A stretch of 64,000 nucleotides of DNA from Ferruginibacter sp. GTDB taxonomy: Bacteria; Bacteroidota; Bacteroidia; Chitinophagales; Chitinophagaceae. Within the stretch, counting starts at the first letter, position 1; each line of letters begins with the position of its first letter. The stretch covers positions 1,665 through 65,664 of the forward strand of contig JBDUCW010000005.1 in NCBI GenBank assembly GCA_040003235.1, in the 5' to 3' direction. Both the position numbers and the translations under genes were made by a program. The notes beneath the pieces are model-generated. The model ran no database searches, was not told the DNA's origin, and saw nothing but the letters and a program-made list of their open reading frames with translations. Positions 6,213-64,000 of this stretch are shown here, one piece after another.

Positions 6213-6225
6213 TTTACGTTGTAAA

Positions 6226-6253
6226 TTATAAGTTGTACGTTATAAGTTGAAGC
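6226..6253. repeat. Family F word repeat, 28-mer copy 1 (coding strand GCTTCAACTTATAACGTACAACTTATAA)
   Basis: 26/28 identical to 42360-42387. Lies 13 nt upstream of the mrdA GTG and 22 nt after the mreD stop. Internally a tandem of CAACTTATAA. Confidence 0.85.
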
Positions 6254-6821: not shown

Positions 6822-6867
6822 CTAACAGATGACGGTTGTTAGTTGTTAGATGTTTGTTGTTAGTAAG
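6822..6867. repeat. Family D degenerate array (AACAGATGACGGTTGTTAGTTGTTAGATG...)
   Basis: Built from the GTTGTTAGATG / CAGATGAC words shared with 14509-14536 and 24382-24396. Left side of the 187-bp mreC-mreD gap. Confidence 0.7.
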
Positions 6868-6968
6868 AAATCATGTATTGCCGACAGAGTTAATATTGTT
6901 GATAAAGTTAAACATGTTCAGACTTATTAAAAACGCCCTGTAATAACAGGCTCCTGCATTTTGATTTG

Positions 6969-6990
6969 CTGTCATCTGACAACTGTCAAC
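6969..6990. repeat. Family D copy, reverse orientation (CTGTCATCTGACAACTGTCAAC)
   Basis: 6969-6983 is the exact reverse complement of GTTGTCAGATGACAG at 24382-24396. Abuts the mreC stop codon. Confidence 0.8.
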
Positions 6991-6996
6991 TCCTTT

Positions 6997-12475: not shown

Positions 12476-14509
12476 ATGGCATTGTTTCAACCCTTCGTTC
12501 CGCCGCAAACAATTATGAAAGAACTGACCGTTAAGTCGGTGCTGCTGGGCGCTTTGTTCGGGGTAATTTTCGGCGCGGCCAACGTTTACCTGGCATTGAA
12601 AGCAGGGCTTACTGTTTCTGCATCCATACCTATTGCAGTAATTGCTATTACATTGGGCAGAAGATTTTTCAAGACCACCATTCTTGAAAACAATATCATT
12701 CAGACAACCGGAAGCGCCGGTGAAAGTATTGCATCAGGTGTGGCATTTACATTACCTGCATTTTTATTTCTTTCATCACCCAGCAGTGCTGAATATTTTA
12801 ATTACCTCACCATATTAATATTGGCAATCGTTGGAGGAATGCTCGGCACATTAATGATGGTGCCTTTAAGAAAAGCACTCATCGTAAATGAACATGATAC
12901 ATTGCCTTATCCCGAAGGAACTGCCTGTGCAGATGTTTTAAAAGCCGGAGAAAAAGGTGGTGATATTGCAAAGACTGCATTCTGGGGTTTGGGTGTTGCC
13001 TTTGCTTATGCAATTCTGCAAAAGATATTCGCCATTATTGACGAAGCACCTTATTATATTACGAAGCAAACCAATAAATTTTTTCCTTCTGCAAAGATCA
13101 GTGGAGAGATAACACCTGAATATCTTGGTGTTGGTTATATTATTGGACCACGCATCGGCGGCATTTTAGTGGCTGGTGGTATTTTGAGCTGGCTCGTTTT
13201 TATTCCTTTACTGTCTTTTATTGTATCACCTGATACCATTGCACACCAATTGGTAAAGCTCGGGTACCTTGCTGATATTACTAAAGATGGCGGCAAGGGC
13301 GGCTGGAATGCAGCAGCACATTCTTTCACCGATTATTCTGCAGCAATTTATTATGCATTCATACGACAGATAGGAGCAGGGGCAGTTGCTGCCGGAGGAA
13401 TTATTACGTTGCTCAAAACTTTTCCGACAATTATTAAATCTGTCAAAGGCAGTATTCACTCAATAAAAAATAATTCAAACGAAGCTGAAGGCGGTGTATT
13501 AAGAACAGAAAAAGATCTCAGTCTTAAAATCGTTGGTATCGGAATTCTTGCATTGGTGTTATTGATCTCAGTACTTCCACAGGTTCCCGGTGATAGTATT
13601 CTTCAGAAATTTTTAATTGGGATATTGGTGATTGTATTCGGAGCACTCTTCGTAACAGTTTCTTCAAGAATTGTAGGATTGATCGGATCGTCAAATAATC
13701 CAATCAGTGGTATGACGATTGCCACGGTGATGGGAACAAGTTTGATATTTCTTGCAGTCGGCTGGTCAGGAAAAGTATATGAACCATTGGTGTTGGTTGT
13801 TGGTGGAATGATCTGTATCGCTGCTGCAAACGCCGGAGCAACATCACAGGATTTGAAAACAGGTTATTTAATTGGGGCAACTCCACGCAATCAGCAGATC
13901 GGTTTATTTGTAGGCGCAATTGTATCATCAATCGTAATTGGTATTACGATTAAATATCTTGACAATCCAACAAAAGAAATGATCTCTCAGGGAATTTATC
14001 ATGGTATTGGTACTGAAAAATTTCCTGCTCCGCAAGCCACACTCATGGCCACTTTGATCAAAGGAATTCAATCTTTCAATCTTGATTGGCAATATGTTTT
14101 TACCGGTGTTTTTCTTGCGATCACAATGGAACTTTGTGGTGTAAAATCTTTGAGTTTTGCAGTAGGGGTTTATCTTCCCTTGTCAACAACATTACCTATC
14201 GCTATTGGCGGTGCCATTAAAGGTTTGGTTGATTGGAAAAAGAAGAAAGAAAATATTGCTGAAACGCCTGAAGAAGAGGAGCTGGGGAAAGGAAGTCTTT
14301 TTGCAACAGGTCTTGTTGCCGGTGGTGCAGTTGCGGGAGTTATTATCGCATTTGTTGCCGGTAGTTCAGGCGGAAGTAACTTTCTTGAAAGAGTAAGTCA
14401 GCAGGCGCATTTGAAAGAATGGTTCGGTGATGGAGGATTTAAAATTTTAGGTGTTGCATTTTTTGCATTGATGGGATGGATGTTATACCGCATTGCACGA
14501 AAGAAATAG
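12476..14509 (+). CDS. OPT family oligopeptide transporter
   Basis: Start moved to the ATG at 12476 (MALFQPF...). More than 14 TM helices. Conserved OPT segments (TGSAGESIASG, NPISGMTIAT, QDLKTGYLIGATP). Confidence 0.85.
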   Translation: MALFQPFVPPQTIMKELTVKSVLLGALFGVIFGAANVYLALKAGLTVSASIPIAVIAITLGRRFFKTTILENNIIQTTGSAGESIASGVAFTLPAFLFLSSPSSAEYFNYLTILILAIVGGMLGTLMMVPLRKALIVNEHDTLPYPEGTACADVLKAGEKGGDIAKTAFWGLGVAFAYAILQKIFAIIDEAPYYITKQTNKFFPSAKISGEITPEYLGVGYIIGPRIGGILVAGGILSWLVFIPLLSFIVSPDTIAHQLVKLGYLADITKDGGKGGWNAAAHSFTDYSAAIYYAFIRQIGAGAVAAGGIITLLKTFPTIIKSVKGSIHSIKNNSNEAEGGVLRTEKDLSLKIVGIGILALVLLISVLPQVPGDSILQKFLIGILVIVFGALFVTVSSRIVGLIGSSNNPISGMTIATVMGTSLIFLAVGWSGKVYEPLVLVVGGMICIAAANAGATSQDLKTGYLIGATPRNQQIGLFVGAIVSSIVIGITIKYLDNPTKEMISQGIYHGIGTEKFPAPQATLMATLIKGIQSFNLDWQYVFTGVFLAITMELCGVKSLSFAVGVYLPLSTTLPIAIGGAIKGLVDWKKKKENIAETPEEEELGKGSLFATGLVAGGAVAGVIIAFVAGSSGGSNFLERVSQQAHLKEWFGDGGFKILGVAFFALMGWMLYRIARKK

Positions 14510-14536
14510 TTGTTAGATGACAGTTGTTAGATGACA
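14509..14536. repeat. Family D tandem repeat, 2 x GTTGTTAGATGACA
   Basis: Perfect 14-nt tandem duplication. It begins at the last base of the OPT stop codon. Confidence 0.9.
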
Positions 14537-14650
14537 GTAGGACAAATACATGCTGCCGTTGGAATTTTATGGGTTGAAGTGACGGGCGGTTATATAAATG
14601 GAATATAAAGTGAGTAACTGACACTTTAAATTATAAAAAACCTTGAACGT

Positions 14651-14684
14651 TTTAAACGTCTTAAACATCTTAAACCTCCTTTAA
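14651..14684. repeat. Family G array: TTAAAC words at 9-nt period (reverse orientation of 59144-59187)
   Basis: TTAAAC at 14652, 14661 and 14670 (..CGTCTTAAACATCTTAAACCTCC..). Ends at the ggt ATG. Confidence 0.75.
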
Positions 14685-38780: not shown

Positions 38781-38911
38781 ATTATTTTTTTATACAAAAT
38801 AACTTCTTTTTTATAAAATAGATAGATTAGTTATCGGCAACAAATAACGCAATCGAATAAACCATTCTAAATTCGAATATCTATCTAAAAAACACGCTGA
38901 CTAAATCAATT

Positions 38912-39109
38912 ATCTGCGAAAACATTCGAATTGCACGCCTGGTAAAAGGTTACTCCCAAAAAAATATGGCTGATATGCTGTTTATAAAACAGCCTTCTTA
39001 TTGTAAGCTCGAAACGGGTATGCGGGAAATCAAGGTATCTGAACTGGAATAGATCGCAATGATTTTGGAAAAGCCGGTGAATTATTTCTTCGCTTCCATG
39101 TCTATATAA
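38912..39109 (+). pseudogene. Decayed paralog of the XRE regulator (in-frame TAG, no ATG start)
   Basis: Translates to ICENIRIARLVKGYSQKNMADMLFIKQPSYCKLETGMREIKVSELE*IAMILEKPVNYFFASMSI. The TAG at 39050-39052 replaces the Lys codon of the intact copy (SELEKIAVILEKPVNYFF). No ATG in frame upstream. Confidence 0.6.
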
Positions 39110-39174: not shown

Positions 39175-41019
39175 TTGCCTGATATCATACAGTTACTGCC
39201 GGATAATATTGCGAACCAGATCGCTGCGGGTGAAGTGATCCAGCGTCCCGCCAGTGCTGTAAAGGAACTGTTGGAAAATGCAGTGGATGCCGGTGCCGAT
39301 GAAATAAAACTCCTCATCAATGATGCCGGGAAAGCCCTGATACAGGTAATCGATAATGGTAAAGGCATGAGCGAAACCGATGCCCGTATGGCTTTTGAAA
39401 GACACGCTACTTCGAAGATCACTTCCATAGATGACCTGTTCCGCATTAAGACCATGGGTTTTCGTGGCGAGGCATTGGCCAGCATTGCCGCAGTAGCACA
39501 GGTAGAACTTAAAACAAAAAAAGATACCGACATCGCCGGAACTTATATTGAGATCGAGAACAGTATCGTTATTAAACAGGAACCTGTTGCCATGGTCAAC
39601 GGCACCAGCATCGCCATGAAAAATCTTTTCTTCAATGTACCGGCAAGAAGAAATTTTTTAAAGAGCAATGCTGCTGAAATGCGGCATGTTATTGATGAAT
39701 TTATCCGCGTGTCAATGGCTTTTCCGCAACTTTTTTTTTCGCTTACTTCAAACGGGCAGGAAGTATTTCATCTTGAAAAAGGATCCTTGAAGCAACGCAT
39801 CATCCAGGTATGCGGTAATAATTATAATACCAAACTGGTAAGCGTGCAGGAACAAACCGATTACCTGAACATTTCCGGATTTGTGGGTAAGCCCGATACC
39901 GCAAAAAAAACAAGGGGCGATCAGTATTTTTTTGTGAACAACCGTTTTATCAAAAGTGCTTACCTCAATCATGCTGTGATGGGTGCATTTGATGAAATGA
40001 TCGCTAAAGACAGTTATCCAATGTATGCTTTGTTCATTGACCTGGATCCTGCGCAGCTTGATATCAATGTTCATCCCACCAAGCAGGAAATTAAATTTGA
40101 AGACGAAAAAATTGTTTACGCATTTGTACAGTCTGCCGTAAAACATGCATTGGCACAATTCAGCATTATGCCTACACTTGATTTTGATCTTGATGCATCG
40201 ATACAAAATCTGGATGCGGTAAGCAAACCTTTTACGGAAGAAAATAAATCTACTGCAGCATCCTCTTCTTTATATCAAACATTCTCTAAAAAAAATCAGG
40301 CGCATTTTATTGAGAGCAGGAGTGAGCTGAAACACTGGAGGGAAGAAAAAGATGACAGTTCTCAGCTGACAGCTGACAGGAAATACAATCCAGAAAATGA
40401 TTTCAATCAAACTGCAGGAAGTCAACATACATTAGCTCACCACCCGCAGTTCGCCACTCACGATTTACTTCAACTGCACAATAGTTATATCGTTGTTCAG
40501 AATGATAAGGGTTACCTGCTCATCCATCAGCAGAATGCGCATGAACGTATTTTATATGAACGTTTTATTGCGGCCCTGGATGGAAAACATATTGCCACAC
40601 AGCGAAGTCTTTTTCCATCAACCATTGAATTAACGCCGGCTGATGCTGTGCTGCTGAATGAATTAATACCTGAAATGCAGCAACTGGGTTATCAGCTGGA
40701 ACCTTTTGGTAGTCATACTTTCGTGATACAGGGAACGCCCGCGGATATGACTGCAGGAAATGAGAAAACGGCCATTGAAAAAATGCTGGAACAATACAAG
40801 CATTACAGCAATGATCTTAAATACAGTAAACGCGAAAAATTAATACGCAGCATGGCATGGCAGCAAAGCATCAAGGCAGGAACTGAACTTGCGCAAAAAG
40901 AAATGAGATCACTGGCAGACGAACTTTTTAATTGCAACATACCTAATATTACTGCCAATGGTAAACCCACTTACCTGGAATTTAAAAAAGATGAGATGGA
41001 CAAGATGTTTGGGAGATAG
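39175..41019 (+). CDS. mutL: DNA mismatch repair protein MutL
   Basis: IAAGEVIQRPASAVKELLENAVDAGA GHKL ATPase N-domain, variable linker, MutL C-terminal dimerisation domain. Apparent TTG start, since stops lie upstream in frame. Confidence 0.93.
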   Translation: MPDIIQLLPDNIANQIAAGEVIQRPASAVKELLENAVDAGADEIKLLINDAGKALIQVIDNGKGMSETDARMAFERHATSKITSIDDLFRIKTMGFRGEALASIAAVAQVELKTKKDTDIAGTYIEIENSIVIKQEPVAMVNGTSIAMKNLFFNVPARRNFLKSNAAEMRHVIDEFIRVSMAFPQLFFSLTSNGQEVFHLEKGSLKQRIIQVCGNNYNTKLVSVQEQTDYLNISGFVGKPDTAKKTRGDQYFFVNNRFIKSAYLNHAVMGAFDEMIAKDSYPMYALFIDLDPAQLDINVHPTKQEIKFEDEKIVYAFVQSAVKHALAQFSIMPTLDFDLDASIQNLDAVSKPFTEENKSTAASSSLYQTFSKKNQAHFIESRSELKHWREEKDDSSQLTADRKYNPENDFNQTAGSQHTLAHHPQFATHDLLQLHNSYIVVQNDKGYLLIHQQNAHERILYERFIAALDGKHIATQRSLFPSTIELTPADAVLLNELIPEMQQLGYQLEPFGSHTFVIQGTPADMTAGNEKTAIEKMLEQYKHYSNDLKYSKREKLIRSMAWQQSIKAGTELAQKEMRSLADELFNCNIPNITANGKPTYLEFKKDEMDKMFGR

Positions 41020-42350: not shown

Positions 42351-42359
42351 GACCTGGAG

Positions 42360-42387
42360 TTATAAGTTGTAAGTAATAAGTTGAAGC
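42360..42387. repeat. Family F word repeat, 28-mer copy 2 (coding strand GCTTCAACTTATTACTTACAACTTATAA)
   Basis: 26/28 identical to 6226-6253. Lies 9 nt upstream of the DUF1501 ATG and 18 nt after the DUF1800 stop. Confidence 0.85.
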
Positions 42388-48524: not shown

Positions 48525-48551
48525 CGAATAAAAATAAGTAATAAATTATAC

Positions 48552-48586
48552 GTTTTACGTAATACGTACAACGTATAACGTAAAAC
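48552..48586 (-). terminator. Family F hairpin directly after the mfd stop codon
   Basis: GTTTTACGTAATACG / CGTATAACGTAAAAC: 15-bp stem with one mismatch and a 5-nt loop. On the minus strand it is followed by the T-rich TATAATTTATTACTTATTTTT. Confidence 0.55.
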
Positions 48587-48587
48587 T

Positions 48588-55100: not shown

Positions 55101-57324
55101 TCGTGCGATCACTTTGGATCAACGCCCCATTAACGGATCCACCAATGCGGATAGTCTAATCTTATCACTCAATGGCTCTTTGTTCGGCGCGCAATCAAGG
55201 TTAGAATTCTATTATAAGAATCATGGAGAAGATAATTTCCCAGGGAATAAAGTCTGGATGCGGGCAAGTAATACCGATCCATGGACAGAGGCGTATGATC
55301 TGTATGCCAACGAGGCCGGCATCAACCAATGGAAATTTGCAAAGATCAATATCAATGATGTGCTGAGCCCCGCAACTCCCTCTTCTACTTTTCAGATTAA
55401 ATTCGGACAGGAAGGTTTTACGTCAGCCAACTCTGTAGTGCAGGAACAGGATTATGATGATGGTTATACTTTTGATGACATCAGTATATTGCCTGCGCAA
55501 AATGATGTGGCATTGGTGGAGGTGGTTTCACCGGGCAAAGCCGGTTGTGGTCTTACTGCAACAACACCAGTAACAATTGCTATAAAAAATTATGCAAATG
55601 CTGCTGTAAGTAATGTTGAGGTAAATTACCGTATCAATAGCGGAACAGTAGTTACAGAAACCATTCCTTCCATTGCAGCCAATACCAGCATACAATATAC
55701 ATTTACTGCAACTGCAGATATTTCTGCGTACACCGATTATAATTGCGATTTCTGGTTAAGCGCTCCTGCCGATACTTATAAAGGCAATGACAGCATGCTG
55801 AACTATACTTTTCATAACAGCCCGGTCATCAGCAGTTTCCCATATTTACAGGGATTTGAATCCAATGACGGTGGCTGGTATGCGAAGGGAAACAACAACA
55901 GCTGGCAATATGGTTCGCCTGCAAAAACAATTATTAATAAAGCAGCGAATGGAACCAAGGCATGGGTAACCAACCTCACGGGTAATTACAATAACAATGA
56001 ATTGTCTTATCTCTATTCTCCCTGTTTTGATATCAGTTCTTTATCACATCCTGTTCTTTCATTCAGTCATATTTACCAGGTAGAAACAGACTATGATTAT
56101 AACTGGGTGGAATATTCAACCGACGGCGGATTGACCTGGCTTAAGCTTGGTGCGGTGGGCGATGGTACCAACTGGTATGATGATGTGACAACGCAAAGAT
56201 TCCGTGCATCCAGAACAACCTGGCATGTTGCGAGCGTTGATATCCCTACGGTTTCGGGCAGTGTGCGTTTCCGTTTTGTAATGTTTGGCGATGGCGGATT
56301 GACTTATGAGGGCGTTGGGATAGATGATATTCATATTTTTAATAAACAAAGTATTTATACCGGGAATCCGATCAGTAGTGGTTTGTCGCAGACTGTTAAT
56401 TCCAATGCGTGGATTAATTTTAATGATGTGAATGGAAAAAGAATTGCATCGGTCAATTCATTCGGGCAGAATCTTGGTGTTACAAACGTACAGGTCTATC
56501 CTTATTCAGGTCCGCAACGCACCAGCAACAATCAATATTATGCCGACCGTAATATTGTGATCCAGCCCACCAATCAACCGGCGTCGAATGTTGGCGTTCG
56601 TTTTTATTTTACAGATGCAGAAGCAAAAAATTTAATTGCAGCCGCCGGATGTCCTTCCTGCATAACAGTGAATGATCCTTATGAACTGGGTTCAACACAA
56701 TATCATGGCAGCATTGCTGAAGAAAATGGTTTGCTGGATGATGATCAACCTGATTCTTTCCGTTTTATTCTTCCGGCAGGAACTGATATCATTCCTTATG
56801 ACAATGGTTATTATGCCGAATTCACGGTAAACAGTTTCAGTGAATTCTGGCTGAGCAAAGGTATACTGGGCGCTGGAAGTAATTGTGCAGGTAGTACCGT
56901 TAGCTATACCGCAGCAGCAGGTGGTACAACTTATCAATGGCAGGAAGACACTGGATCTGGTTTTACAAATATCAGCAACGGAACCAATTATTCAGGAGCA
57001 GCAACAGCTGTATTACAACTGATCGCGTTACCCACTTCTGCATCCGGAAATAAATATCGTTGTCTTGTAAATGGAATAGCAGATACGCCAAGAACACTAC
57101 TTTTTAAAATGACCTGGAATGGAAGTACAGATACCAATTGGTTTAATCCGGCCAACTGGAGCTGCGGCATATTGCCCGATCAATATACGGATGTGGTTAT
57201 ACCTGGTACGCTTGTCAATTACCCGGTACTGAATGCCAATGCAGCAGTAAGAAGTGTACAGTTGCAGTCAGGTGTGTCAATTACCGTTAGTACAGGAGTA
57301 GTGCTGGATATTAAGGGGAGGTAA
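52162..57324 (+). CDS. Very large secreted S8 (subtilisin-family) serine peptidase with multiple accessory beta-domains
   Basis: Signal peptide. Asp (VGIGDNA), His (HGTHTSGTLAG) and Ser (GGTSMAAPVVTG) triad. Two MAM/choice-of-anchor-like segments (PYTENFES..., PYLQGFESNDGGW...). 1720 aa. Confidence 0.9.
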   Translation: MKKNYFFLLLTFISLNLAAQNERPARFTNGEFVTGNNISRQTFKQNDLRTALYGENYFVLIQFSILPGAIQQQQLKTAGITLAQYLPGNAYLAIINKTFNFSIARNYQIGSINIIPAYLKIDKIIADNNSFDDKKNESYFAVTLFPGTDKKIAEAALLQLHAQVVHTKFTDAPVIFIEKNKNIIDSIAALSFVSYINLQHIKDQTLNHNDVGTHSITALQSPSGRNLDGRNVAVGIGDNAEISTHIDFTGRLINRVFYYPDYHGTHTSGTLAGGGIIDPRYHGMAPKAPIISQWFSDILTNTPAYVTDYNMVATNNSYHSEALGCSGSTVYDVLSNYVDAQALNLKQVLHVIAAGNDGTFACSPYPASFATVKSGWQCAKNVITVGNLVGQDYSISFSSSKGPVQDGRIKPEIVANGTNTWSTFPDNTYGLFGGTSMAAPVVTGTVSLLQQRYRQLHSGTNGSSALMKAVLCNGADDLGNAGPDYTFGFGMLNARRAVEAIETNRYTLSTVSNGGNNTQNISVPAGARRLKVMLCWTDKEAAANAAISLVNDLDLTVTEPSSALHRPLVLNSDPAHVTDTAIERRDSLNNIEQVVIDNPAAGTYTLNINGHAVPFGPQDYVTTYQIDMPSVTVEYPFGGETMVPGETENLRWSAFGNETNDYTVEYSANGGANWLTKDTVAAGSRTFAWTVPATATNNGLIRVSRLGTALSGSSTYPFIILGQPVVTATIPCVGYATLSWPSITSATSYDICQLKGDSMKVIGNTTGTSFLVSGLDKYKTEWLAVIAKNGTVSGRRSIAQSVIANTGTCSLSTFQNDLAIDTILTPTTTRFGTVSNTTTVRISNRGSVAVSGPYTVQFSTGGAASTPETINVSIPPASSLDYTLTNSFSISPGSGIYNLKFWVNNAADLYHENDTAYKVFQTFANDPVTLPYTENFESFPNRELTSGELGFGDIHFDFAPSTDRGRLRTFVNSGFAHSGNRAITLDQRPINGSTNADSLILSLNGSLFGAQSRLEFYYKNHGEDNFPGNKVWMRASNTDPWTEAYDLYANEAGINQWKFAKININDVLSPATPSSTFQIKFGQEGFTSANSVVQEQDYDDGYTFDDISILPAQNDVALVEVVSPGKAGCGLTATTPVTIAIKNYANAAVSNVEVNYRINSGTVVTETIPSIAANTSIQYTFTATADISAYTDYNCDFWLSAPADTYKGNDSMLNYTFHNSPVISSFPYLQGFESNDGGWYAKGNNNSWQYGSPAKTIINKAANGTKAWVTNLTGNYNNNELSYLYSPCFDISSLSHPVLSFSHIYQVETDYDYNWVEYSTDGGLTWLKLGAVGDGTNWYDDVTTQRFRASRTTWHVASVDIPTVSGSVRFRFVMFGDGGLTYEGVGIDDIHIFNKQSIYTGNPISSGLSQTVNSNAWINFNDVNGKRIASVNSFGQNLGVTNVQVYPYSGPQRTSNNQYYADRNIVIQPTNQPASNVGVRFYFTDAEAKNLIAAAGCPSCITVNDPYELGSTQYHGSIAEENGLLDDDQPDSFRFILPAGTDIIPYDNGYYAEFTVNSFSEFWLSKGILGAGSNCAGSTVSYTAAAGGTTYQWQEDTGSGFTNISNGTNYSGAATAVLQLIALPTSASGNKYRCLVNGIADTPRTLLFKMTWNGSTDTNWFNPANWSCGILPDQYTDVVIPGTLVNYPVLNANAAVRSVQLQSGVSITVSTGVVLDIKGR

Positions 57325-57352
57325 AAAATACTGAATAAGGAGCAAAAAAATC

Positions 57353-57710
57353 TTGAACAAGGAACAAGTCCACCCGGACGACCCGGTCGGACGGGGAATG
57401 TCGAACAATGAACTTTAGAATAGTAAAAAGGTTTTAATTGAGTGTCTAAAATAGAATTATCAATATTAAATTCTCAAGTTGAAAAGCTTCTGACCTTGAA
57501 CATTGAGTGTTGATTCTTGATTATTGAGCATTTTTACTTTACTCTTTTATCCAGAAAATATTTTCAGGACTGTCAGACGGAGACAGTTGAACAAACGTTT
57601 AGTTCTGCAAAATAAAATATTCTTCAACTTCTTTATTTCTTATTAATTATTTCTTATTGTATTCTATATGCTTTCGTGATTCTACATTCCCTGTTCCTTG
57701 TTCGATATTC
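57353..57710. repeat. MITE/BIME-like mosaic element bounded by family A inverted repeats, with internal family B and C words
   Basis: Left end TTGAACAAGGAACA[27-nt GC-rich insert]GGGAATGTCG (57353-57403). Right end CTACATTCCCTGTTCCTTGTTCGATATTC (57682-57710) is its reverse complement without the insert. B words at 57494-57530, C hairpin at 57569-57587. No ORF. Confidence 0.55.
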
Positions 57711-57905
57711 ACTTCTTCTGATTAAACATCCATTCCATCATTGGGGATTCGTTGGTATCAAGTAAATTTATAAAAGTAATGGCTAATCTTAATGGAAAGG
57801 ATATAAACCTGTTTTATAAAAGTATTGTTGTACATAATGAATTCCTGAATTCGTCATTCTGAATTCATAATTATTCCTATCTTCCTTCCCGGAAAAAATA
57901 TATTT

Positions 57906-58625
57906 ATGGCATTACAACCGTGGCGTACAGGAAAAGTTATTAAAATAGAAGATCATACACACAACACCCGGCGTTTCTGGATCGAAGTTCCTGAATTAAA
58001 CTCATTCGATTTTATTCCCGGGCAGTTTGTCACACTGGACCTACCCATTCATGAAAAGCCCAACAAACGATGGCGAAGTTACTCCATTGCAAGTTGTCCT
58101 GATGGCACAAATGTTTTTGAACTGATCATCGTCCGTTCTGCTGATGGAGCAGGCACGGCTTATCTTTTTGATCATGTGATAGTGGGCAGTGAATTGACTT
58201 TGCGCGGACCGCAGGGCGTTTTTATTTTGCATGAACCATTGGAGAAAGATATTTTTTTTATCTGCACAGGCACTGGTATTGCACCTTTTAACAGCATGAT
58301 CCATCATATAAAAAACAACAGCATTTCTTTTAAGAATATTTACCTCGTTTTCGGTTGCAGAAAAAAAGGAGACCTGCTTTATTTTGATGAACTCGATCAA
58401 CTGCAGAAAGAATTACCAGGCTTTAAATATATTCCTGTATTGTCACGCGAAGAATGGGATGGGCGTAGTGGTTATGTTCATCCGGCGTATGAAGAATTCT
58501 GTACTGAGAAACAGCCCGCTGTCTTTTTAATATGCGGATGGAAAGGAATGATTGACGAAGCGAGACAGCGTATTCTCGCGATGGGATATGATAATAAAAG
58601 TATTCATAGAGAAGTATATGGTTAA
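57906..58625 (+). CDS. Ferredoxin-NADP reductase-type FAD/NAD(P)-binding oxidoreductase
   Basis: RxYS FAD motif (RWRSYSIAS). NAD(P)-binding GTGIAPF. 239 aa two-domain FNR fold. Confidence 0.8.
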   Translation: MALQPWRTGKVIKIEDHTHNTRRFWIEVPELNSFDFIPGQFVTLDLPIHEKPNKRWRSYSIASCPDGTNVFELIIVRSADGAGTAYLFDHVIVGSELTLRGPQGVFILHEPLEKDIFFICTGTGIAPFNSMIHHIKNNSISFKNIYLVFGCRKKGDLLYFDELDQLQKELPGFKYIPVLSREEWDGRSGYVHPAYEEFCTEKQPAVFLICGWKGMIDEARQRILAMGYDNKSIHREVYG

Positions 58626-58627
58626 AA

Positions 58628-58744
58628 GTTCATGGCTGATAGATCATAGTTCATAGGAAGAACTTTCTAAATGTTTTTTCGATGAGATGAAAGCACTGCA
58701 ATGAATCATACTTCGCCATGAACCATCAACAATGAACTATGAAC
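58628..58744. repeat. Family H words (GTTCATGG / GTTCATAG and their complements) flanking the FNR-nuoA gap
   Basis: GTTCATGGCTGATAGATCATAGTTCATAGG (58628-58657) and GCCATGAACCATCAACAATGAACTATGAAC (58715-58744). The second block runs into the first annotated nuoA codons. Confidence 0.6.
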
Positions 58745-59136
58745 TTCTTGAACTTATTCATTATATTCGTACAAACATGTTTGTTATGGGCGCAGGTTCA
58801 CTCATAGCTTTAATAATTGCCGCTGTTTCCTTTTCGGGAATTGCCATTCTTATCTCTAAAATTGTTCTGAAAGCTTCTAAAAACAAACAGAAGGGGGAAC
58901 CATACGAATGCGGTATTCCTACAAAAGGCCCCAGCTGGATACAATTTAATGTGGGCTATTATCTTTTCGCACTGATCTTTTTAATCTTTGATGTGGAACT
59001 TGCTTTTTTATTTCCATGGGCTGTAGTGGTGAAAAAAGTGGGCTGGCCTGCATTGCTTGAAATAGTAATTTTCTTTTTTATATTATTCATGGGATTTTTA
59101 TATGCGCATAAGAAGGGAGCGTTTAAGTGGAAGTAA
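58732..59136 (+). CDS. nuoA: NADH-quinone oxidoreductase subunit A
   Basis: Three TM helices, PYECG motif. The start is uncertain: the ATG at 58732 lies inside the repeat, and an alternative ATG is at 58777. Confidence 0.85.
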   Translation: MNYELLELIHYIRTNMFVMGAGSLIALIIAAVSFSGIAILISKIVLKASKNKQKGEPYECGIPTKGPSWIQFNVGYYLFALIFLIFDVELAFLFPWAVVVKKVGWPALLEIVIFFFILFMGFLYAHKKGAFKWK

Positions 59137-59143
59137 AACGTTC

Positions 59144-59187
59144 GTTTAAGGGTTTAAGAAGTTTAAAAGGTTTAATAGGTTTAATGC
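59144..59187. repeat. Family G tandem array, five units of GTTTAAnnn (8-9 nt period)
   Basis: Units start at 59144, 59152, 59161, 59170 and 59179. A sixth copy (GTTTAAGTGG, 59121) lies inside the last nuoA codons. Confidence 0.8.
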
Positions 59188-59205
59188 ACTTACTATCATG
59201 ATTTG

Positions 59206-59265
59206 TTTTTCTAATTCGTGAATCTGATTTTTCTAATTCGTGAAATTCGTGTTTTAAAATTCGTG
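59206..59265. repeat. Family E array: 2 x TTTTTCTAATTCGTGAA plus two further ATTCGTG words
   Basis: 17-mers at 59206-59222 and 59228-59244 are identical. ATTCGTG recurs at 59245 and 59259. Ends 8 nt before the nuoB ATG. Confidence 0.8.
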
Positions 59266-59273
59266 TTATAAAA

Positions 59274-59813
59274 ATGCTGGAAGCACAAAATAATATTACC
59301 GAATCATTTCCTGGTGAAGTTTACCATTCGCCCGGCGGCGGTATTGTGGTAAGTAAAATGGACCAGGTCATTAACTGGGCAAGAAGTAATTCTTTATGGC
59401 CACTCGTTTTTGGTACCAGTTGCTGCGCCATAGAAATGATGAGTGCTGCTTCTGCAAAGTACGACTGGAGCCGCTTTGGTTTTGAAGTGGCGCGTGCCAC
59501 ACCGAGGCAGGCCGACGTGATCATCATTGCCGGAACGATCGTAAATAAAATGGCACCGGTACTAAAACGTTTGTACGATCAGATGGGCGATCCGAAATAT
59601 GTAATAGCAATGGGTGCCTGCGCAACGAGCGGCGGTCCGTTTTTTTACAATACTTATTCTGTGGTGAAAGGCGCTGATCATATTATTCCTGTTGATGTAT
59701 ACATTGCCGGTTGTCCGCCTAGACCGGAAGCATTGATTCATGCATTAATTACATTGCAGGAAAAAATAAAAAGCGGGATGACGAGAGAGCAGATAAAAGC
59801 AAGTAGTAAGTAA
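59274..59813 (+). CDS. nuoB: NADH-quinone oxidoreductase subunit B
   Basis: [16 protein letters not shown] and CPPRPE N2-cluster cysteine motifs. Confidence 0.95.
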
Positions 59814-59816
59814 TAA

Positions 59817-59945
59817 GTTTTATGTTATACGTTATAAGTATGATTAAGAGGAGTGTTGAATTTTTAATTTTCAAAGAGAATAAATCAAGTATAATAAAGT
59901 GGTAACAAATTAAAAACATCCAACGTAAAACGTATAACGTAAAAC
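59817..59945. repeat. Long-range inverted repeat (family F) spanning the nuoB-nuoC gap
   Basis: 59817-59832 GTTTTATGTTATACGT pairs with 59930-59945 ACGTATAACGTAAAAC: 16 bp with one G-U, enclosing 97 nt. Confidence 0.8.
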
Positions 59946-59964
59946 TTACAACGTCAAACTCTTC

Positions 59965-60423
59965 ATGAACCGGGAAACATTACAACAACATATCTCCGAA
60001 CTGCTTTCAACTGCCACTTTTGAAGAAGGCGGTGAGTGGCTCAATATAAATATTGATCCGGCTGACTGGTTATCGTTTGCAACTGCCTTAAAAAATACGG
60101 AAGGATTGGAATTTGATTACCTCATGTGCCTGACCTGTGTGGATTGGAAAACACATCTGACCATGGTCTATCATCTTGAATCTACCAGTTACCGGCACAC
60201 GATTGTAGTAAAAGCAAAACTCGACAGAGCGAAACCTGAGATTGAATCTGTGTCTGATCTCTGGCGCACAGCAGAATTTCATGAAAGAGAAGTGTTTGAA
60301 TTGTTTGGTGTAAATTTTTTGCATCATCCGGATTTAAGATTGCTGATCCTGCCCGATGGCTGGGAAGGAAAATTTCCATTGCGCAAAGATTTTGAAGATG
60401 AAGTGAACATGATCAAATTATAA
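59965..60423 (+). CDS. nuoC: NADH-quinone oxidoreductase subunit C
   Basis: Conserved WRTAEFHEREVFELFG and ILPDGWEG...PLRKD motifs. 152 aa. Confidence 0.9.
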   Translation: MNRETLQQHISELLSTATFEEGGEWLNINIDPADWLSFATALKNTEGLEFDYLMCLTCVDWKTHLTMVYHLESTSYRHTIVVKAKLDRAKPEIESVSDLWRTAEFHEREVFELFGVNFLHHPDLRLLILPDGWEGKFPLRKDFEDEVNMIKL

Positions 60424-60435
60424 AAACGTTTCATC

Positions 60436-60470
60436 GTTGAGCATTGAATATTGAACATTATGCATGAATA
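60436..60470. repeat. Family B words (GTTGAGCATTGAATATTGAACATTATGCATGAATA)
   Basis: Same TTGAACATTGA / TTGAGCATTGA vocabulary as 57494-57530 and 63513-63545. In the nuoC-nuoD gap. Confidence 0.7.
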
Positions 60471-60495
60471 ATCTATGGTCAAATAAAAGCAATTG

Positions 60496-61611
60496 ATGTT
60501 TCAAGAAGTAGCAACAACAGAGCAGGGGGATTTAATTATAAATGTTGGGCCGCAGCATCCGGCTACGCATGGCGTGCTCCATCTTGTGATCACTATCAAT
60601 GGCGAGACTGTTAAAAACGTAGAACCGCACTTGGGATATATTCATCGTTCTATTGAAAAAATGTGTGAGAGCCTGAGTTACCGGCAATTCATTTATGTGA
60701 CAAGCCGCATGGATTATTTATCATCGCACATTAACAATCATGGCTGTGCTTTGTGTGTAGAAAAAGGTTTGCAGATCGAAGTGCCGCAACGGGCGCAGGT
60801 TGTAAGGGTTTTGATGGATGAATTGACCCGGCTGGCTTCGCACCAGTTGTGGTGGGGCGCTGTCGCGATGGATGTTGGCGCACTCACGCCTTTCTTTTTA
60901 TCTTTTCGCGAAAGAGAAATGATCAATGAAATTATGGAAGAGACCTGTGGCGCAAGATTAACCATGAATTATATCGTTCCCGGTGGCGTGATGTATGATA
61001 TCCATCCCAACTTCCAAAAGAAAGTAAAAGATTTTCTAACGCATTTCCGTTCTAAAATAAATGAGTATGATGAACTGGTGACGAACAATATTATTTTTCA
61101 GAATCGCATGAAGGGCATTGGCTGTATTTCCAAAGCAGATGCTATTTCATATGGCATGACCGGACCCGCGGCGAGAGCAAGTGGTGTAAGTTGCGACATC
61201 AGAAAATTATTTCCTTATGAAGTTTATAGTCAGGTAAATTTTGAAGAAATACTTGCAACGGAAGGCGACAGCTTTGCCCGATATACCGTGCGCATAAAAG
61301 AAATGCATCAGTCAATGAACATCGTTGAACAATTAATAGACAATATTCCGGAAGGAGATTTTCAGGCAAAAACAAAAGCAGTATTAAAATTACCGAAGGG
61401 GGAGTTTTACAGTCGTGTTGAAACAGCCCGCGGCGATTTCGGTGTGTACATTGTAAGCGAAGGCGGAACAACGCCTTACCGGATCAAATTCCGTTCACCG
61501 GGATTTTCAAATCTTTCTGCATTGAATCATTTAGTAAAAGGACATAAACTTGGGGATATGGTGGCAATCATGGGAACCTTGGATTTAGTGATACCGGACA
61601 TTGATCGGTAA
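60496..61611 (+). CDS. nuoD: NADH-quinone oxidoreductase subunit D
   Basis: Start moved to the ATG at 60496. GPQHPATHGVLHL, LGYIHRSIEK and C-terminal LDLVIPDIDR motifs. Confidence 0.95.
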   Translation: MFQEVATTEQGDLIINVGPQHPATHGVLHLVITINGETVKNVEPHLGYIHRSIEKMCESLSYRQFIYVTSRMDYLSSHINNHGCALCVEKGLQIEVPQRAQVVRVLMDELTRLASHQLWWGAVAMDVGALTPFFLSFREREMINEIMEETCGARLTMNYIVPGGVMYDIHPNFQKKVKDFLTHFRSKINEYDELVTNNIIFQNRMKGIGCISKADAISYGMTGPAARASGVSCDIRKLFPYEVYSQVNFEEILATEGDSFARYTVRIKEMHQSMNIVEQLIDNIPEGDFQAKTKAVLKLPKGEFYSRVETARGDFGVYIVSEGGTTPYRIKFRSPGFSNLSALNHLVKGHKLGDMVAIMGTLDLVIPDIDR

Positions 61612-61618
61612 TGTTGTA

Positions 61619-61755
61619 AGTTATAAGTTGTAGGTTATAAGTTAAAACCTACTGATTCAAAGATCTTTTTATAATAGCAATTTTTTTTAATAAAGGAATG
61701 AATAAAAAAATGAAATTAACAACTCAACAAAACTTATAACTTAAAACCTATAACT
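61619..61755. repeat. Long-range inverted repeat (family F) spanning the nuoD-nuoH gap
   Basis: 61619-61643 AGTTATAAGTTGTAGGTTATAAGTT versus 61731-61755 AACTTATAACTTAAAACCTATAACT: 22/25 complementary, 87 nt between. A local 7-bp hairpin GTAGGTT..AACCTAC sits at 61631-61653. Confidence 0.8.
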
Positions 61756-61757
61756 CT

Positions 61758-62834
61758 TTGTTCTCTCTCGAACACATAACAAACGCAGTACACAACTGGC
61801 TGAATGCAAATTTCAGTTCAGGTTGGGCATTGCTGTTTGAATTCGTGATTGTCGGAATACTAGTGATCAGTTTATTTGCAGTATTGGGTCTGGTGCTGAT
61901 CATGATGGAAAGAAAAGTATCTGCATGGATGCAGTTAAGGCTGGGACCGAATCGTGTTGGTCCGAAAGGAATGTTTCAAACGCTGGCCGATACCATCAAG
62001 CTGATGGTGAAAGAAGGCATGACACCGGATGGGGCAGATAAATTTTTATTTAATGTGGCGCCTTTTATTGTAATGATCGTTGCAATGGTTGTGATGGCAC
62101 CATTAATGTTTGCAAAAGGTTTTCAGATCTGGGATATCAATATCGGCGTGTTGTTCATTACTTCGATCTCTTCTGTTTCAGTGATCGGAATATTGATGGC
62201 GGGCTGGGCCAGTAACAATAAATATTCATTGATGGGCGCTATGCGCAGCGGGGCACAGATCGTGAGTTATGAATTGTCTGCCGGACTTTCTATTCTTTCG
62301 ATTGTTGTGCTGACGGGCAGTGTAAAAATTTCCGATATCATTGCATCGCAGGAAAACGGATGGTGGTTGTTCAAAGGACATATTCCGGCGCTGATCGCAT
62401 TTGTAATTTTTATTATTGCTGTAACTGCAGAAACCAACCGTGCACCTTTTGATATGGCCGAAGCAGAATCAGAACTTACCGGTGGCTTTCATACAGAATA
62501 TTCCGGGATGAAATTCGCTTTGTTCTTTTTAGCAGAGTATGTAAATATTTTTGTGGCCTGTGCTTTTGGTGCAACTTTATTTCTCGGCGGATGGATGCCT
62601 TTTCACATCGGCAGCTGGCATGCCTTTAATCATGTGATGGATTATGTTCCTTCATCGCTTTGGTTTTTTGGTAAAACATTTTTTTTAATTTTTGTGATCA
62701 TGTGGTTCCGGTGGACATTCCCACGCCTGCGTATTGATCAGTTATTGAACCTGGAATGGAAATATTTATTACCGATCAGTATGGTAAACCTATTGCTGGT
62801 AACACTGATCGCAATAATGGGCTGGCATTTTTGA
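61758..62834 (+). CDS. nuoH: NADH-quinone oxidoreductase subunit H
   Basis: ERKVSAWMQLRLGPNRVGPKG, TNRAPFDMAEAESEL and EY motifs. Apparent TTG start; the exact start is uncertain. Confidence 0.92.
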   Translation: MFSLEHITNAVHNWLNANFSSGWALLFEFVIVGILVISLFAVLGLVLIMMERKVSAWMQLRLGPNRVGPKGMFQTLADTIKLMVKEGMTPDGADKFLFNVAPFIVMIVAMVVMAPLMFAKGFQIWDINIGVLFITSISSVSVIGILMAGWASNNKYSLMGAMRSGAQIVSYELSAGLSILSIVVLTGSVKISDIIASQENGWWLFKGHIPALIAFVIFIIAVTAETNRAPFDMAEAESELTGGFHTEYSGMKFALFFLAEYVNIFVACAFGATLFLGGWMPFHIGSWHAFNHVMDYVPSSLWFFGKTFFLIFVIMWFRWTFPRLRIDQLLNLEWKYLLPISMVNLLLVTLIAIMGWHF

Positions 62835-62846
62835 ATACAACGTCTT

Positions 62847-62932
62847 GCGTTTGCTGTTTGGCGTTGAGTATCTAAAGAGCAGGATACTTTGCAACAGAAA
62901 GTTCCTAACACCAAACACCAAACAGCAAACGC
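62847..62932. repeat. Perfect 15-bp long-range inverted repeat (family I) in the nuoH-nuoI gap
   Basis: 62847-62861 GCGTTTGCTGTTTGG and 62918-62932 CCAAACAGCAAACGC. Nested 6-bp hairpin AGTATC..GATACT at 62867-62888. The right flank repeats CCAAAC words. Confidence 0.85.
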
Positions 62933-62948
62933 CAAACAATAAGTTATT

Positions 62949-63428
62949 ATGTTTTTTAAAAATTATATAAAGGACGTTTACAATGGAGTTACTTCCTTAT
63001 TAAAAGGTATGCGCCTCACTGGAAGATATTTTATTCATCACCGTAAAGAAAGTATTACAGAAGAATATCCGGATAATAAAGCAACGCTGGTATTGGCAGA
63101 ACGGTTTCGGGGAGAAGTGGTGATGCCACATGATGAAAATAATGAACATGCCTGTACCGGCTGCACTGCATGCGAACTGGCCTGTCCGAATGCAACCATC
63201 AAGATCGTCACCAAATTTGATATAACACCTGAAGGCAAAAAGAAGAAAGCGATCGATACGTTTGTTTATCACCTGGAATTGTGTACCATGTGTAATCTTT
63301 GTATTGAGGCCTGCCCGACTGATGCAATTAAAATGGCGCAGAATTTTGAACACAGTGTAACAGACAGGACCAAACTTACAAAAGTATTGAACAGGCCGGG
63401 ATCGAAAGTGAGGGAAGGAGTAGAATAA
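62949..63428 (+). CDS. nuoI: NADH-quinone oxidoreductase subunit I
   Basis: Two 4Fe-4S motifs, CTGCTACELACP and CTMCNLCIEACP. Confidence 0.93.
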   Translation: MFFKNYIKDVYNGVTSLLKGMRLTGRYFIHHRKESITEEYPDNKATLVLAERFRGEVVMPHDENNEHACTGCTACELACPNATIKIVTKFDITPEGKKKKAIDTFVYHLELCTMCNLCIEACPTDAIKMAQNFEHSVTDRTKLTKVLNRPGSKVREGVE

Positions 63429-63456
63429 TTAAGAATTAAAAATTAAGAATTAAAAG
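63429..63456. repeat. Tandem 14-mer (TTAAGAATTAAAAA / TTAAGAATTAAAAG), family J
   Basis: Starts at the base after the nuoI stop codon. 13/14 identical units. Confidence 0.8.
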
Positions 63457-63460
63457 TTAG

Positions 63461-63574
63461 TTCGAAATTCGACATTCTTTGTTCCTTGTTCGATATTTTT
63501 TTGACCGATCAACCTGAACATTGAACATTGATTGTTGAATATTTGTATTTCCGGTCTGACGGTCTCCGTCTGAC
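63461..63574. repeat. Mosaic of family A, B and C words in the nuoI-nuoJ gap
   Basis: A: TTCGAAATTCGACATTCTTTGTTCCTTGTTCGATATT (63461-63497). B: CCTGAACATTGAACATTGATTGTTGAATATTTG (63513-63545). C: GTCTCCGTCTGAC (63562-63574) is the reverse complement of 57572-57584. Confidence 0.8.
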
Positions 63575-63588
63575 TACCAAATAAAAGA

Positions 63589-64000
63589 ATGACTGCTTCA
63601 CAAATTATATTTTATATTTTATCTGCCTTCATACTTGGAGCAGCAATACTTTCTGTGACTACCCGGAAGATTTTCCGCGCTGCCATCTGGTTATTGTTTT
63701 CACTCATTAGTATTGCAGGAATTTATTTCTGGATGGAAGTAGAATTTATTGCTGCCGTTCAGATCATCGTGTATGTAGGTGGCATTGTGGTACTCATTAT
63801 TTTTTCAATTTTTCTTACACAGCAATCAGGTAAAGAAATGGCGAAGGCGCCGATTTCAAGAACGATCGCATCAGTGCTGGCAGTACTATTCGGCTTTGCA
63901 TTAACCTATTTGCTGATCTATAAAAATGAATTCAAAGCGGGCGATGGAAAATTTGATATGGAACTTTCAAGGATTGGTACGCAAATGCTGAGCACCGGTA
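63589..64000 (+). CDS. nuoJ: NADH-quinone oxidoreductase subunit J, 3' end outside window
   Basis: Not in the ORF track because it has no stop within the window. ATG at 63589. MTASQIIFYILSAFILGAAILSV...AAVQIIVYVGGIVVLIIF is a typical NuoJ N-terminal half. Confidence 0.85.
   Translation, partial: MTASQIIFYILSAFILGAAILSVTTRKIFRAAIWLLFSLISIAGIYFWMEVEFIAAVQIIVYVGGIVVLIIFSIFLTQQSGKEMAKAPISRTIASVLAVLFGFALTYLLIYKNEFKAGDGKFDMELSRIGTQMLSTG

Follow-up and report, generated by a model that had tools for sequence, protein, structure and literature searches.

The first genes of the nuo operon of Ferruginibacter sp., which encodes an NADH dehydrogenase of the 11-subunit type, are separated by spacers made of imperfect arrays of 7-nt words. 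Often, two such arrays lie in inverted orientation and form most of the spacer, and hairpins of the REP or REPIN type accompany them. We studied these arrays in a stretch of 64,000 nt (hereafter the window; G+C content about 40%), in which positions 58626-64000 are the beginning of the operon, and in loci of other Chitinophagaceae. With little better than even confidence, we favour the reading that the nuo spacers are local cases of fast-evolving repeats of the STRR/REPIN type, which originate at the DNA level and are kept only in orientations that translation tolerates. An earlier note on this DNA had presented the inflated and bracketed gaps as an organisation of the nuo operon. This specificity was not borne out, since heptamer arrays and bracketing arms are also found outside nuo, both in the window (the mre gaps and further ones) and in many Chitinophagaceae.

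Arrays and arms in the gaps of the nuo operon

The nuo genes were identified with Pfam and by comparison with orthologs (Table 1). The nearest relatives found by protein search are L161 (NuoD 93% identical) and L162 (NuoD 89%), where L and a number designate a locus of the comparative set. The start of nuoH at 61758 is backed by a conserved N-terminus and by an ATG at the same position in L161. The first 18 codons of the longest open reading frame (ORF) of nuoA (58732-58785) are an array of ATGAACT heptamers in frame, and the NuoA proteins of L162 and L163 start with MGAGSLIAL and MGPGSLIAL at the position of ATG 58786. Judging from these sequences, this ATG is probably the true start of nuoA and the 18-codon extension is only apparent.

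Seven gaps lie between the gene upstream of nuoA and nuoJ, each of them 72-160 nt long, rich in short word repeats, and AT-rich at its centre. Our lengths agree with those given in the earlier note, i.e., 137 (A-B), 151 (B-C), 72 (C-D), 146 (D-H), 114 (H-I), and 160 nt (I-J), and the sole ORFs that overlap these gaps are short (41-65 aa), on which ground hidden small genes were provisionally rejected. The repeat unit is nearly always 7 nt or a multiple of 7, a regularity that had been overlooked. Tandem Repeats Finder recovered the tandem words that had been pointed out, placing them at 59144-59184 (period 9), 59243-59273 (period 14), 60437-60459 (period 7), 63427-63459 (period 7/14), and 63515-63531 (period 7). 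Arrays of period 7/14 with 3.3-5.7 copies were found at 58627, 58718, 59801, 59922, 60437, 61613, 61731, 62907, and 63427, and the copies within the arrays of the window match at 69-94%.

The three inverted repeats that had been described as bracketing gaps were all retrieved, with the distances to stop and start codons that had been given for them: 59817-59832 with 59930-59945 in B-C (16 bp, including one G-U), 61619-61643 with 61731-61755 in D-H (22 of 25 paired), and 62847-62861 with 62918-62932 in H-I (15 of 15). The pairing reaches beyond these cores to 31 nt at 84% in B-C and 24 nt at 88% in H-I. The full arms (25 nt at 88% in D-H) hold perfect runs of only 15-16 bp, whereas an RNase III processing stem has a duplex of roughly two helical turns (about 20 bp or more). 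The arms start 3-12 nt past the stop codon, and the predicted minimum-energy structure leaves the start codon free, together with the preceding 2-19 nt. We compared the folding energy of each nuo gap with that of 300 dinucleotide-preserving shuffles, the control that the earlier note had proposed, and the three gaps folded beyond their shuffles: z = -3.4 in B-C (0/300 shuffles as low), z = -2.7 in D-H (4/300), and z = -5.1 in H-I (0/300). The minimum-energy structure of all three consists of a stem by which the spacer is closed off. The stems are thus beyond chance, and in a polycistronic RNA they would, as the earlier note had it, loop out the AT-rich spacer and join stop and start codons.

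A stem closing off the spacer is also predicted in the gap before nuoA (58626-58785), which was missing from the original list: it has inverted AGTTCAT/ATGAACT arms (58626-58654 pairs with 58718-58746, 29 nt at 76%) and z = -2.2. The I-J gap (z = -3.2) folds through local hairpins alone, and the A-B (z = +1.5) and C-D (z = +0.2) gaps, which carry direct word arrays only, fold no more than their shuffles. The arms of B-C, D-H, and H-I have different sequences, and the words vary between the gaps of this one operon. The 3' arm of B-C lacks NTG triplets and ends a few nucleotides upstream of the nuoC ATG; that of H-I is poor in G, has no NTG triplet either, and ends just upstream of the nuoI ATG. 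Some words are shared more widely. Those of the C-D run reappear at about 57520-57560 and at 63511-63544, and the word AATTCGTG of the A-B gap recurs in nuo gaps of L162 and L068. The hairpin at 63543-63565 is kept in the I-J gap of L161 (L161:4510-4569), and four tandemly spaced copies of it lie in the nuoL-nuoM gap of that locus (L161:7504-7716).

Heptamer arrays in other gaps

The same arrays occur elsewhere in the window (Table 1). The two arms of the mreC-mreD gap form a bracket with an own-arm duplex of -20.8 kcal/mol, and the words at 57349-57411, in the 581-nt gap that precedes the FNR-like gene, are matched by a 3' arm at 57680-57712. Certain words recur, e.g., GTTATAA/GTTGTAA at 6218, 42358, 59817, and 61613; another is TGAACAT, which is found near 57520 and at 60437 and 63515. 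When coverage by repeats of each period from 4 to 14 was computed with a simple period detector, arrays of period 7 covered 9.1% and those of period 14 covered 6.4% of the non-coding bases of the window, versus 0.2% of the coding ones, and every other period from 4 to 13 covered at most 1.8% of the non-coding DNA. In the window together with 80 related loci, the coverage at period 7 is 5.1% in non-coding versus 0.2% in coding DNA.

For the statistics on gaps, we used 529 distinct co-directional gaps of 60-400 nt from the window and 164 loci, a set that is centred on nuo operons and in which genes were called crudely, from ORFs. We defined matched end arms as a gapless inverted match, with a score of at least 12, between the first and the last 50 nt of a gap. 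Such arms are present in 67 of the 529 gaps (12.7%), versus 0.37% of 3000 pairings of arms taken from different gaps, and are thus 34-fold commoner within than between gaps. Within matched arms, the self-identity at period 7 is 0.55, versus about 0.26-0.34 at other periods. On the shuffle z-scores, the period spectrum, and the cross-gap control, chance or low complexity was rejected.

In long gaps, the median distance is 13 nt from the stop to the 5' arm and 26 nt from the 3' arm to the start. We considered whether the arms are positioned so as to abut the codons and rejected the idea: both ends are reached in 43% of the long gaps versus 38% with random placement, about as often as expected, because the element occupies about 68% of a long gap. 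The long spacer is the element itself, and its arms have no precise placement.

Strand purity and polarity

The 152 arrays comprise 98 distinct consensus words with no common motif beyond base composition. This composition is strand-pure: C makes up 5.5% of the G-containing strand, and 96 words are without any C. Because an inverted repeat made of a G-arm followed by a C-arm reads alike on both strands, the strand of the gene is uninformative on orientation, and we judged the latter by the position in the gap and the type of gap instead of by comparing genes on the plus and minus strands. G exceeds C in 67 arrays, and C exceeds G in 10, in the first 40% of the gap; the respective numbers in the last 40% are 8 and 39. 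Unpaired arrays are more polar still (40:4 and 2:12), and gaps free of arrays show no G/C skew at either end. Arrays are also concentrated in co-directional gaps (1.89 per kb, versus 0.23 per kb in divergent ones). Since the two ends of a gap are on the same strand and have opposite skews, a strand-biased mutation process cannot produce this pattern, which points to a filter at the level of translation.

The codon content of the arrays follows from their composition. An array that is nearly free of C after a stop codon is rich in G, T, and A and therefore quickly offers stops in all three frames. Accordingly oriented, post-stop arrays have a density of stop triplets of 0.096, versus 0.063 if they are reverse-complemented and 0.067 in array-free gaps, and the median distance within which all three frames meet a stop is 41.5 nt in gaps with a post-stop array versus 75 nt in those without (p = 3e-9). 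An array that is nearly free of G before a start codon has, for the same reason, few ATG, GTG, or TTG triplets and no self-folding. The density of NTG triplets in pre-start arrays is 0.024, versus 0.060 if they are reversed, and the last 40 nt are without NTG in 21 of the 42 gaps with a pre-start array versus 93 of the 417 array-free gaps (22%).

Turnover among relatives

NuoD of the window is 100% identical to a protein of a metagenome-assembled genome labelled Ferruginibacter sp.; scans of genomes and metagenomes gave at most 87% identity, and all close NuoD matches in the protein search were Chitinophagaceae. Over the 80 loci of this family that we compared for gap size, the sum of the nuoA-J gaps varies between -40 nt, where genes overlap, and more than 1000 nt, so inflation is a trait that differs among lineages. 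The statement of the earlier note that nuo cistrons usually abut or overlap fits several of these relatives, Puia and others, in which the summed gaps are -40 to +1 nt.

Arms are replaced between relatives whose NuoD proteins are 89-93% identical. The B-C and C-D gaps of L161 and L162 are unrelated to those of the window. The D-H gap has kept its bracket in both, but it is made of GTTGAGT/ACTCAAC words, not GTTATAA, and folds at z = -4.65 in L161. At H-I, L161 has homologous arms that have diverged, with an extra heptamer in one of them, and L162 has other arms in their place. Between the near-identical genomes of L165 and L166, heptamer copies and words differ, e.g., at D-H. Other inflated relatives have inverted heptamer pairs of other words (GGTTTAA/CTTAAAC, GGAGTCG/CGACTCC, AAATGTA/TACATTT), and several carry REPIN-like inverted pairs of the GC-rich palindrome CCCCTAAAGGGG in the same nuo gaps.

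Further types of filler were observed at nuo junctions. A hairpin family of about 95 nt (hereafter family A1), AATAATGAACAAGGAACAAGGAAT...loop...ATTCCTTGTTCCTTGTTCGATATTC, recurs with a conserved sequence in several genera (L139:490-590, L062:10018-10112, three copies in L057, L041, L054, L063, L075, and L161:1478-1580), and its words are present in the window at 57349-57411, 57680-57712, and 63461-63497. It lies at different nuo junctions in different genomes, usually ends 3-7 nt upstream of the ATG, and has a GAAY/RTTC core phased every 7 nt in its arms; no Rfam family matched it. In Lacibacter-like loci (L024, L031, L047, L073, L010, and L033), a sequence-conserved element of two GC-rich hairpins occupies nuo junctions (e.g., L073:5811-6000, 7132-7304, and 8382-8565): one hairpin with GCACACAGGGCCAGCTTATTTGA lies directly after the stop and a second with GAGGGTGAGGCC directly before the start. 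It has the appearance of a family that is present in many copies and is specific to gaps between cistrons.

The lineage of L163, L165, L166, and L168 carries arrays of GAAATGT(G) after the stop and of AAATCAT/AAATCGT before the start in its D-H, I-J, and L-M gaps. These are mutually non-complementary, as are the GAAATGT/ATCATAA pairs of this lineage; the GAAATGT(G) word holds ATG-TGA start-stop pairs, and the gaps also have a large inverted element, GTCATTGCGAGGAGGGGTTCTTGCCCCGACGTGGCAATC... In the nuoB-nuoC gap of L161 (L161:681-1007), the 9-mer AAGTAAATG is repeated about 20 times with near-perfect copies, in an array longer and cleaner than any of the window, and a gene of the DUF1801 family is inserted between nuoB and nuoC in L163 (4046-4486) and L164 (548-988).

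Origin and retention of the arrays

Under a DNA-level origin, the arrays would arise by slipped-strand amplification of a heptamer, and inverted duplication or copy-and-paste of hairpin units would widen gaps that were formerly tight or overlapping. Only orientations compatible with translation would then last, a step that has statistical support. Bacteroidota initiate translation without a Shine-Dalgarno sequence. A leader that is start-poor and unstructured would suit this mode of initiation, in which stray start codons in an unstructured leader are plausibly costly. Where the gaps are co-transcribed, paired arrays are predicted by folding to associate over a long range, in a stem that would close the spacer and draw the stop and start codons towards each other. 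Secondary effects of this stem on the stability or processing of the mRNA, or on coupling, are possible.

Several observations weigh against this account. The polarity of the arrays and the matching of arms within gaps are equally compatible with a selected structure, and the D-H bracket is retained in three relatives with different words, which could mean that the structure is selected. Some word families are conserved between genera and stop 3-7 nt short of the ATG, e.g., AATAATGAACAAGGAAC...TTCCTTGTTCGATATTC, which hints at a sequence-specific role or active mobility and not at simple slippage. No generating enzyme was found: a Pfam scan of 44 ORFs of the window gave no transposase, RAYT, or Y1 transposase. 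The bias of the gap set towards nuo and its crude gene calls count here too. Finally, the comparison of G:U with A:C mismatches described below rests on about 140 transitions, and weak or recent selection is compatible with it.

The mismatch-repair gene mutL of the window (39175-41019) has a TTG start and is one uninterrupted ORF of 614 aa with DNA_mis_repair and MutL_C domains. Since the ORF and its domains appear intact, a defect in mismatch repair is not indicated as the source of slippage-type repeats.

Function at the RNA level

Alternatively, the stem between the post-stop and the pre-start arm could itself be the functional unit, a selected RNA device. We regard this as a real possibility, though an improbable one. 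In one version, the terminating ribosome would melt the outer pairs and free the next leader, allowing coupling or re-initiation over a long gap; in another, the duplex of 16-31 bp would be processed by an RNase III-type enzyme or would act as a barrier to decay, and the relative amounts of the cistrons would be set in this way. The stems are located where such a model requires them and exceed chance. A D-H bracket is common to the window, L161, and L162 despite a change of words, and, as said, it folds well below its shuffles in L161. The excess of matched arms within gaps, the concentration of arrays in co-directional gaps, and the lack of promoter or terminator motifs in the nuo gaps are in line with it, as is the composition of the arms: each is C-free or G-free, so that an arm hardly folds on itself and has the other arm as its main partner.

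However, selection on stems in the transcript should lead single-sided changes to favour G:U over A:C, and the mismatches of the 67 stems (G:U 65, A:C 74, transversions 79) show no such excess. Duplex energies are -14.9 kcal/mol in the sense and -15.2 kcal/mol in the antisense direction, i.e., without asymmetry, and in the alignment of family A1 only 2 of 25 pairs are altered on both sides, with G:U about as frequent as A:C. Maintenance of the pairing at the RNA level is thus negative by all three measures, and the idea that the pairing is kept for an RNA function drew no support from the mismatch spectrum, the duplex energies, or the conservation of arms. Arrays without a partner are also common, both here (A-B, C-D, and I-J gaps) and in the L163 lineage with its GAAATGT/ATCATAA words, and relatives with compact nuo operons manage without stems. 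The arms end 2-19 nt short of the start codon, which therefore is not itself sequestered, and the frequency with which they abut both ends is explained by an element that fills most of the gap. Re-initiation, RNase III processing, and mRNA stabilisation, the roles named in the earlier note, are possible consequences of the modelled stems.

A related and bolder idea, which we hold to be rather unlikely, is that the strand-pure arrays are a selected system of operon punctuation in Bacteroidota, with their initiation without a Shine-Dalgarno sequence. The C-free post-stop array would catch ribosomes that read through or shift frame, in all three frames, given that with a period of 7 nt a stop triplet cycles through every frame within 21 nt. 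The G-free pre-start array would be an unstructured landing pad without start codons, and the pairing of the two would gate or couple initiation or mark a processing site. If true, such punctuation would permit cistrons to be spaced by 100-150 nt while coordinated expression is kept.

Binding platforms and independent transcription units

The arrays might also be regulatory sites at which an oligomeric RNA- or DNA-binding protein reads one motif per heptamer, much as HutP and TRAP read phased triplets; we consider this very unlikely. The strict period of 7, the GAAY/RTTC core repeated every 7 nt in family A1, and the reuse of position-specific words in L163, L165, L166, and L168 (GAAATGT after the stop, AAATCAT/AAATCGT before the start) would fit such a platform. 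The same proposal has been made for TAACTGA repeats a few nucleotides upstream of starts (MacGregor 2015, PMC4679880). Against it stand the 98 consensus words of the 152 arrays, which share nothing beyond base composition and change from gap to gap in one operon, and the lack of a candidate protein. Phased YC dimers, as in a Rho loading site, are not enriched in pre-start arrays beyond composition (0.58 observed versus 0.53 expected), and the idea of a Rho loading site was rejected.

That each gap holds its own promoter and/or terminator, with repeats that are incidental AT-rich low complexity, is scarcely credible: the gaps are long with AT-rich centres and sigma-70-like hexamer matches exist in the region, but such matches are as frequent as in shuffles (20 versus 21.4 expected), arrays are rare in divergent gaps, the promoter-bearing ones, and heptamer periodicity and matched arms far exceed the expectation from base composition. 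None of the nuo gaps has a Bacteroidetes -7 box (TANNTTTG), nor does either strand between 56863 and 62546, so the nuo promoter was not located. This box is scarce in the whole window (35 found versus 79 +/- 8 expected from shuffles), an under-representation that fits avoidance outside real promoters. No nuo gap has a site resembling an intrinsic terminator: what comes after the 3' arms is an A-rich stretch that leads to the start codon, instead of the U tract that follows the GC-rich hairpin of a terminator or attenuator. Internal promoters and terminators were rejected on these grounds. Without -7 boxes and terminator-like sites in the gaps, co-transcription is plausible, and if the gaps are transcribed within the operon mRNA, their paired arrays will fold there.

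Relation to known repeats

Tandem heptanucleotide repeats of cyanobacteria were reportedly described by Mazel in 1990 and by Mrazek in 2007, as STRR sequences and long simple sequence repeats (LSSR). They have been known for more than 30 years, and we know of no function established for them. The present arrays resemble them in being made of tandem heptanucleotides that are nearly only intergenic, with many words per genome and a scattered distribution over lineages; they have a 7-nt head-to-tail unit in at least 3 copies and are confined to non-coding DNA. In both cases, slippage can be invoked as the origin. Unlike the cyanobacterial repeats, the present arrays occur in Chitinophagaceae (Bacteroidota), have imperfect copies (about 70-90% matches), are strand-pure and polar to stop and start codons, and often form inverted pairs over a spacer.

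The cyanobacterial heptamer repeats are summarised in PMC4679880 (see also PMC4692102). The former work describes direct repeats of the heptamer TAACTGA just upstream of starts in Beggiatoaceae, cyanobacteria, and a few Bacteroidetes, for which S1, Csp, or CsrA were put forward as binders, and other heptamer repeats in the spacers of Gramella and Aequorivita (MacGregor 2015, PMC4679880). The likeness lies in heptamers a few nucleotides before starts, and one TAACTGA set is reversed just after a stop. However, that case has one dominant word, whereas the present arrays have about 100, and it reports no pairing between post-stop and pre-start repeats (PMC4679880).

The analogy with REP and BIME elements drawn in the earlier note is apt. 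Like REP, BIME, and REPIN sequences (PMC3116915, PMC3337134, PMC3733652), the arrays are short extragenic inverted pairs that form hairpins and are symmetric at the DNA level, and they are placed between co-directional or convergent genes, in many cases within an operon, and seldom between divergent genes. Two inverted units forming a hairpin, as in a REPIN, are present. A single conserved palindrome of 20-40 nt, as in REP, is not found in the nuo arms, only in the CCCCTAAAGGGG pairs and family A1. In contrast to REP elements associated with a RAYT, the nuo arms of the window are built of heptamers, do not represent copies of a single palindrome, and begin with neither a GTAG nor a CGTC tag, and no RAYT was found among the 44 ORFs of the window that were scanned.

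Correia (NEMIS) elements of Neisseria and ERIC/IRU elements of Yersinia are about 100-150 nt long, have terminal inverted repeats, and lie between co-transcribed genes. They form long hairpins in the mRNA, on which RNase III or RNase E acts to alter the stability of the segment. They are sequence-conserved multi-copy MITEs with target-site duplications. The present elements have inverted ends too, but the interiors of the B-C, D-H, and H-I gaps show by eye no obvious similarity. A single MITE or REP family was rejected on this lack of obvious similarity and on the 98 distinct words, and at the D-H gap, the sole one inspected for it, no target-site duplication was seen by eye. In the MS2 coat-replicase, E. 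coli atpHA, and rplJL cases, translation is coupled through long-range mRNA structure. Here too, sequence near the stop is predicted to pair with the leader of the next cistron, and translation of the upstream gene would open it, but those structures are gene-specific and conserved and mask the initiation region, whereas the present ones leave the start and 2-19 nt unpaired and are not conserved. Rfam 15 gave no match at the gathering score in the window, none at E <= 1 across 57300-64000, and none in six array-rich relatives.

These arrays make the Chitinophagaceae a second large bacterial family with abundant intergenic heptamer repeats. A search of the full-text literature returned no account of heptamer arrays in this family, of strand purity or polarity, or of pairing across operon spacers; their strand purity, their orientation relative to stop and start, and their pairing across the spacers of conserved operons (nuo, mre) are thus apparently new with respect to the literature searched. 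A filter at the level of translation would make the function of heptamer repeats testable. In practical terms, operon spacers are lengthened by the arrays, and spurious N-terminal extensions may arise from them, as in nuoA, which is relevant to the annotation of metagenome-assembled genomes of Chitinophagaceae.

Table 1. Genes of the nuo region and repeat features of the window, by position.
Positions	Strand	Feature
6218..6249	-	GTTGTAA/ATTATAA-family array, mreD-PBP2 gap
6824..6863	-	Pre-start A/C-rich CTAACAA-type array, one bracket arm, mreC-mreD gap
6968..6993	-	Post-stop G/T-rich arm, mreC-mreD gap; pairs with 6824-6863
14508..14538	+	Post-stop array AGTTGTTAGATGAC x2.2, after OPT transporter gene
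14642-14675		Second word array of OPT-GGT gap, before GGT gene
42358..42382	-	AGTTATA-family array, 55-nt DUF1800-DUF1501 gap
48532..48587	-	ACGTAAA/ACGTATA-family array, fills 63-nt mfd-MFS gap
57349..57411	+	CTTGTTC-family 5'-arm-type words GAACAAGGAACAAG, ATGTCGAACAATGAAC around GC-rich hairpin, 581-nt gap
57906-58625		FNR-like reductase gene, upstream of nuoA
58626..58657	+	Post-stop AGTTCAT-type heptamer array, 5' arm of bracket upstream of nuoA
58715..58755	+	Pre-start ATGAACT-type heptamer array, 3' arm of bracket upstream of nuoA
58732-59136	+	nuoA ORF; start probably ATG 58786
59144..59187	+	Post-stop GTTTAAG(R) tandem array, A-B gap; period 8-9, about 5 copies, 84% matches, no complementary partner
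59206..59273	+	Pre-start AATTCGTG word array, A-B gap; 59243-59273 of period 14
59274-59813	+	nuoB
59814..59844	+	B-C 5' arm, G/T-rich GTTATAC/GTTATAA heptamers, directly after nuoB stop
59913..59960	+	B-C 3' arm, A/C-rich AACGTAA/AACGTAT array; period 7/14, 82%
59965-60423	+	nuoC
60430..60470	+	C-D word run TGAGCAT/TGAATAT/TGAACAT, unpaired
60496-61611	+	nuoD
61612..61651	+	D-H 5' arm, GTTGTAA/GTTATAA/GTTGTAG array, directly after nuoD stop
61727..61757	+	D-H 3' arm, AACTTAT/AACTTAA/AACCTAT array; ends 2 nt before nuoH TTG
61758-62834	+	nuoH (TTG start)
62842..62865	+	H-I 5' arm GCGTTTGCTGTTTGGCGTT; diverged homologue in L161
62863..62889	+	Local inner hairpin in H-I spacer loop (predicted minimum-energy structure)
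62899..62942	+	H-I 3' arm, AACACCA/AACAGCA/AACGCCA array; period 7, 84%
62949-63428	+	nuoI
63427..63459	+	AATTAAG/AATTAAA heptamer array after nuoI stop, unpaired; period 7, 90%
63461..63497	+	Orphan 3'-arm copy TTCGAAATTCGACATTCTTTGTTCCTTGTTCGATATT of dispersed cross-genus hairpin family (alignment A1)
63511..63544	+	I-J word run TGAACAT/TGATTGT/TGAATAT
63543..63565	+	REP-like hairpin GGTCTGACGG-TCT-CCGTCTGAC (GGTCTGACG...CGTCAGACC), I-J gap
63589 onward	+	nuoJ

Other observations in the window

An ORF of 69 aa at 37751-37960 appears HTH-like, a judgement made from its sequence only, and a degenerate paralogous copy of it lies about 1.1 kb away, at about 38900-39100. By eye, this paralogue appears to be broken by an in-frame TAG. 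The pair flanks a gene on the opposite strand that encodes a protein of 265 aa of unknown function.

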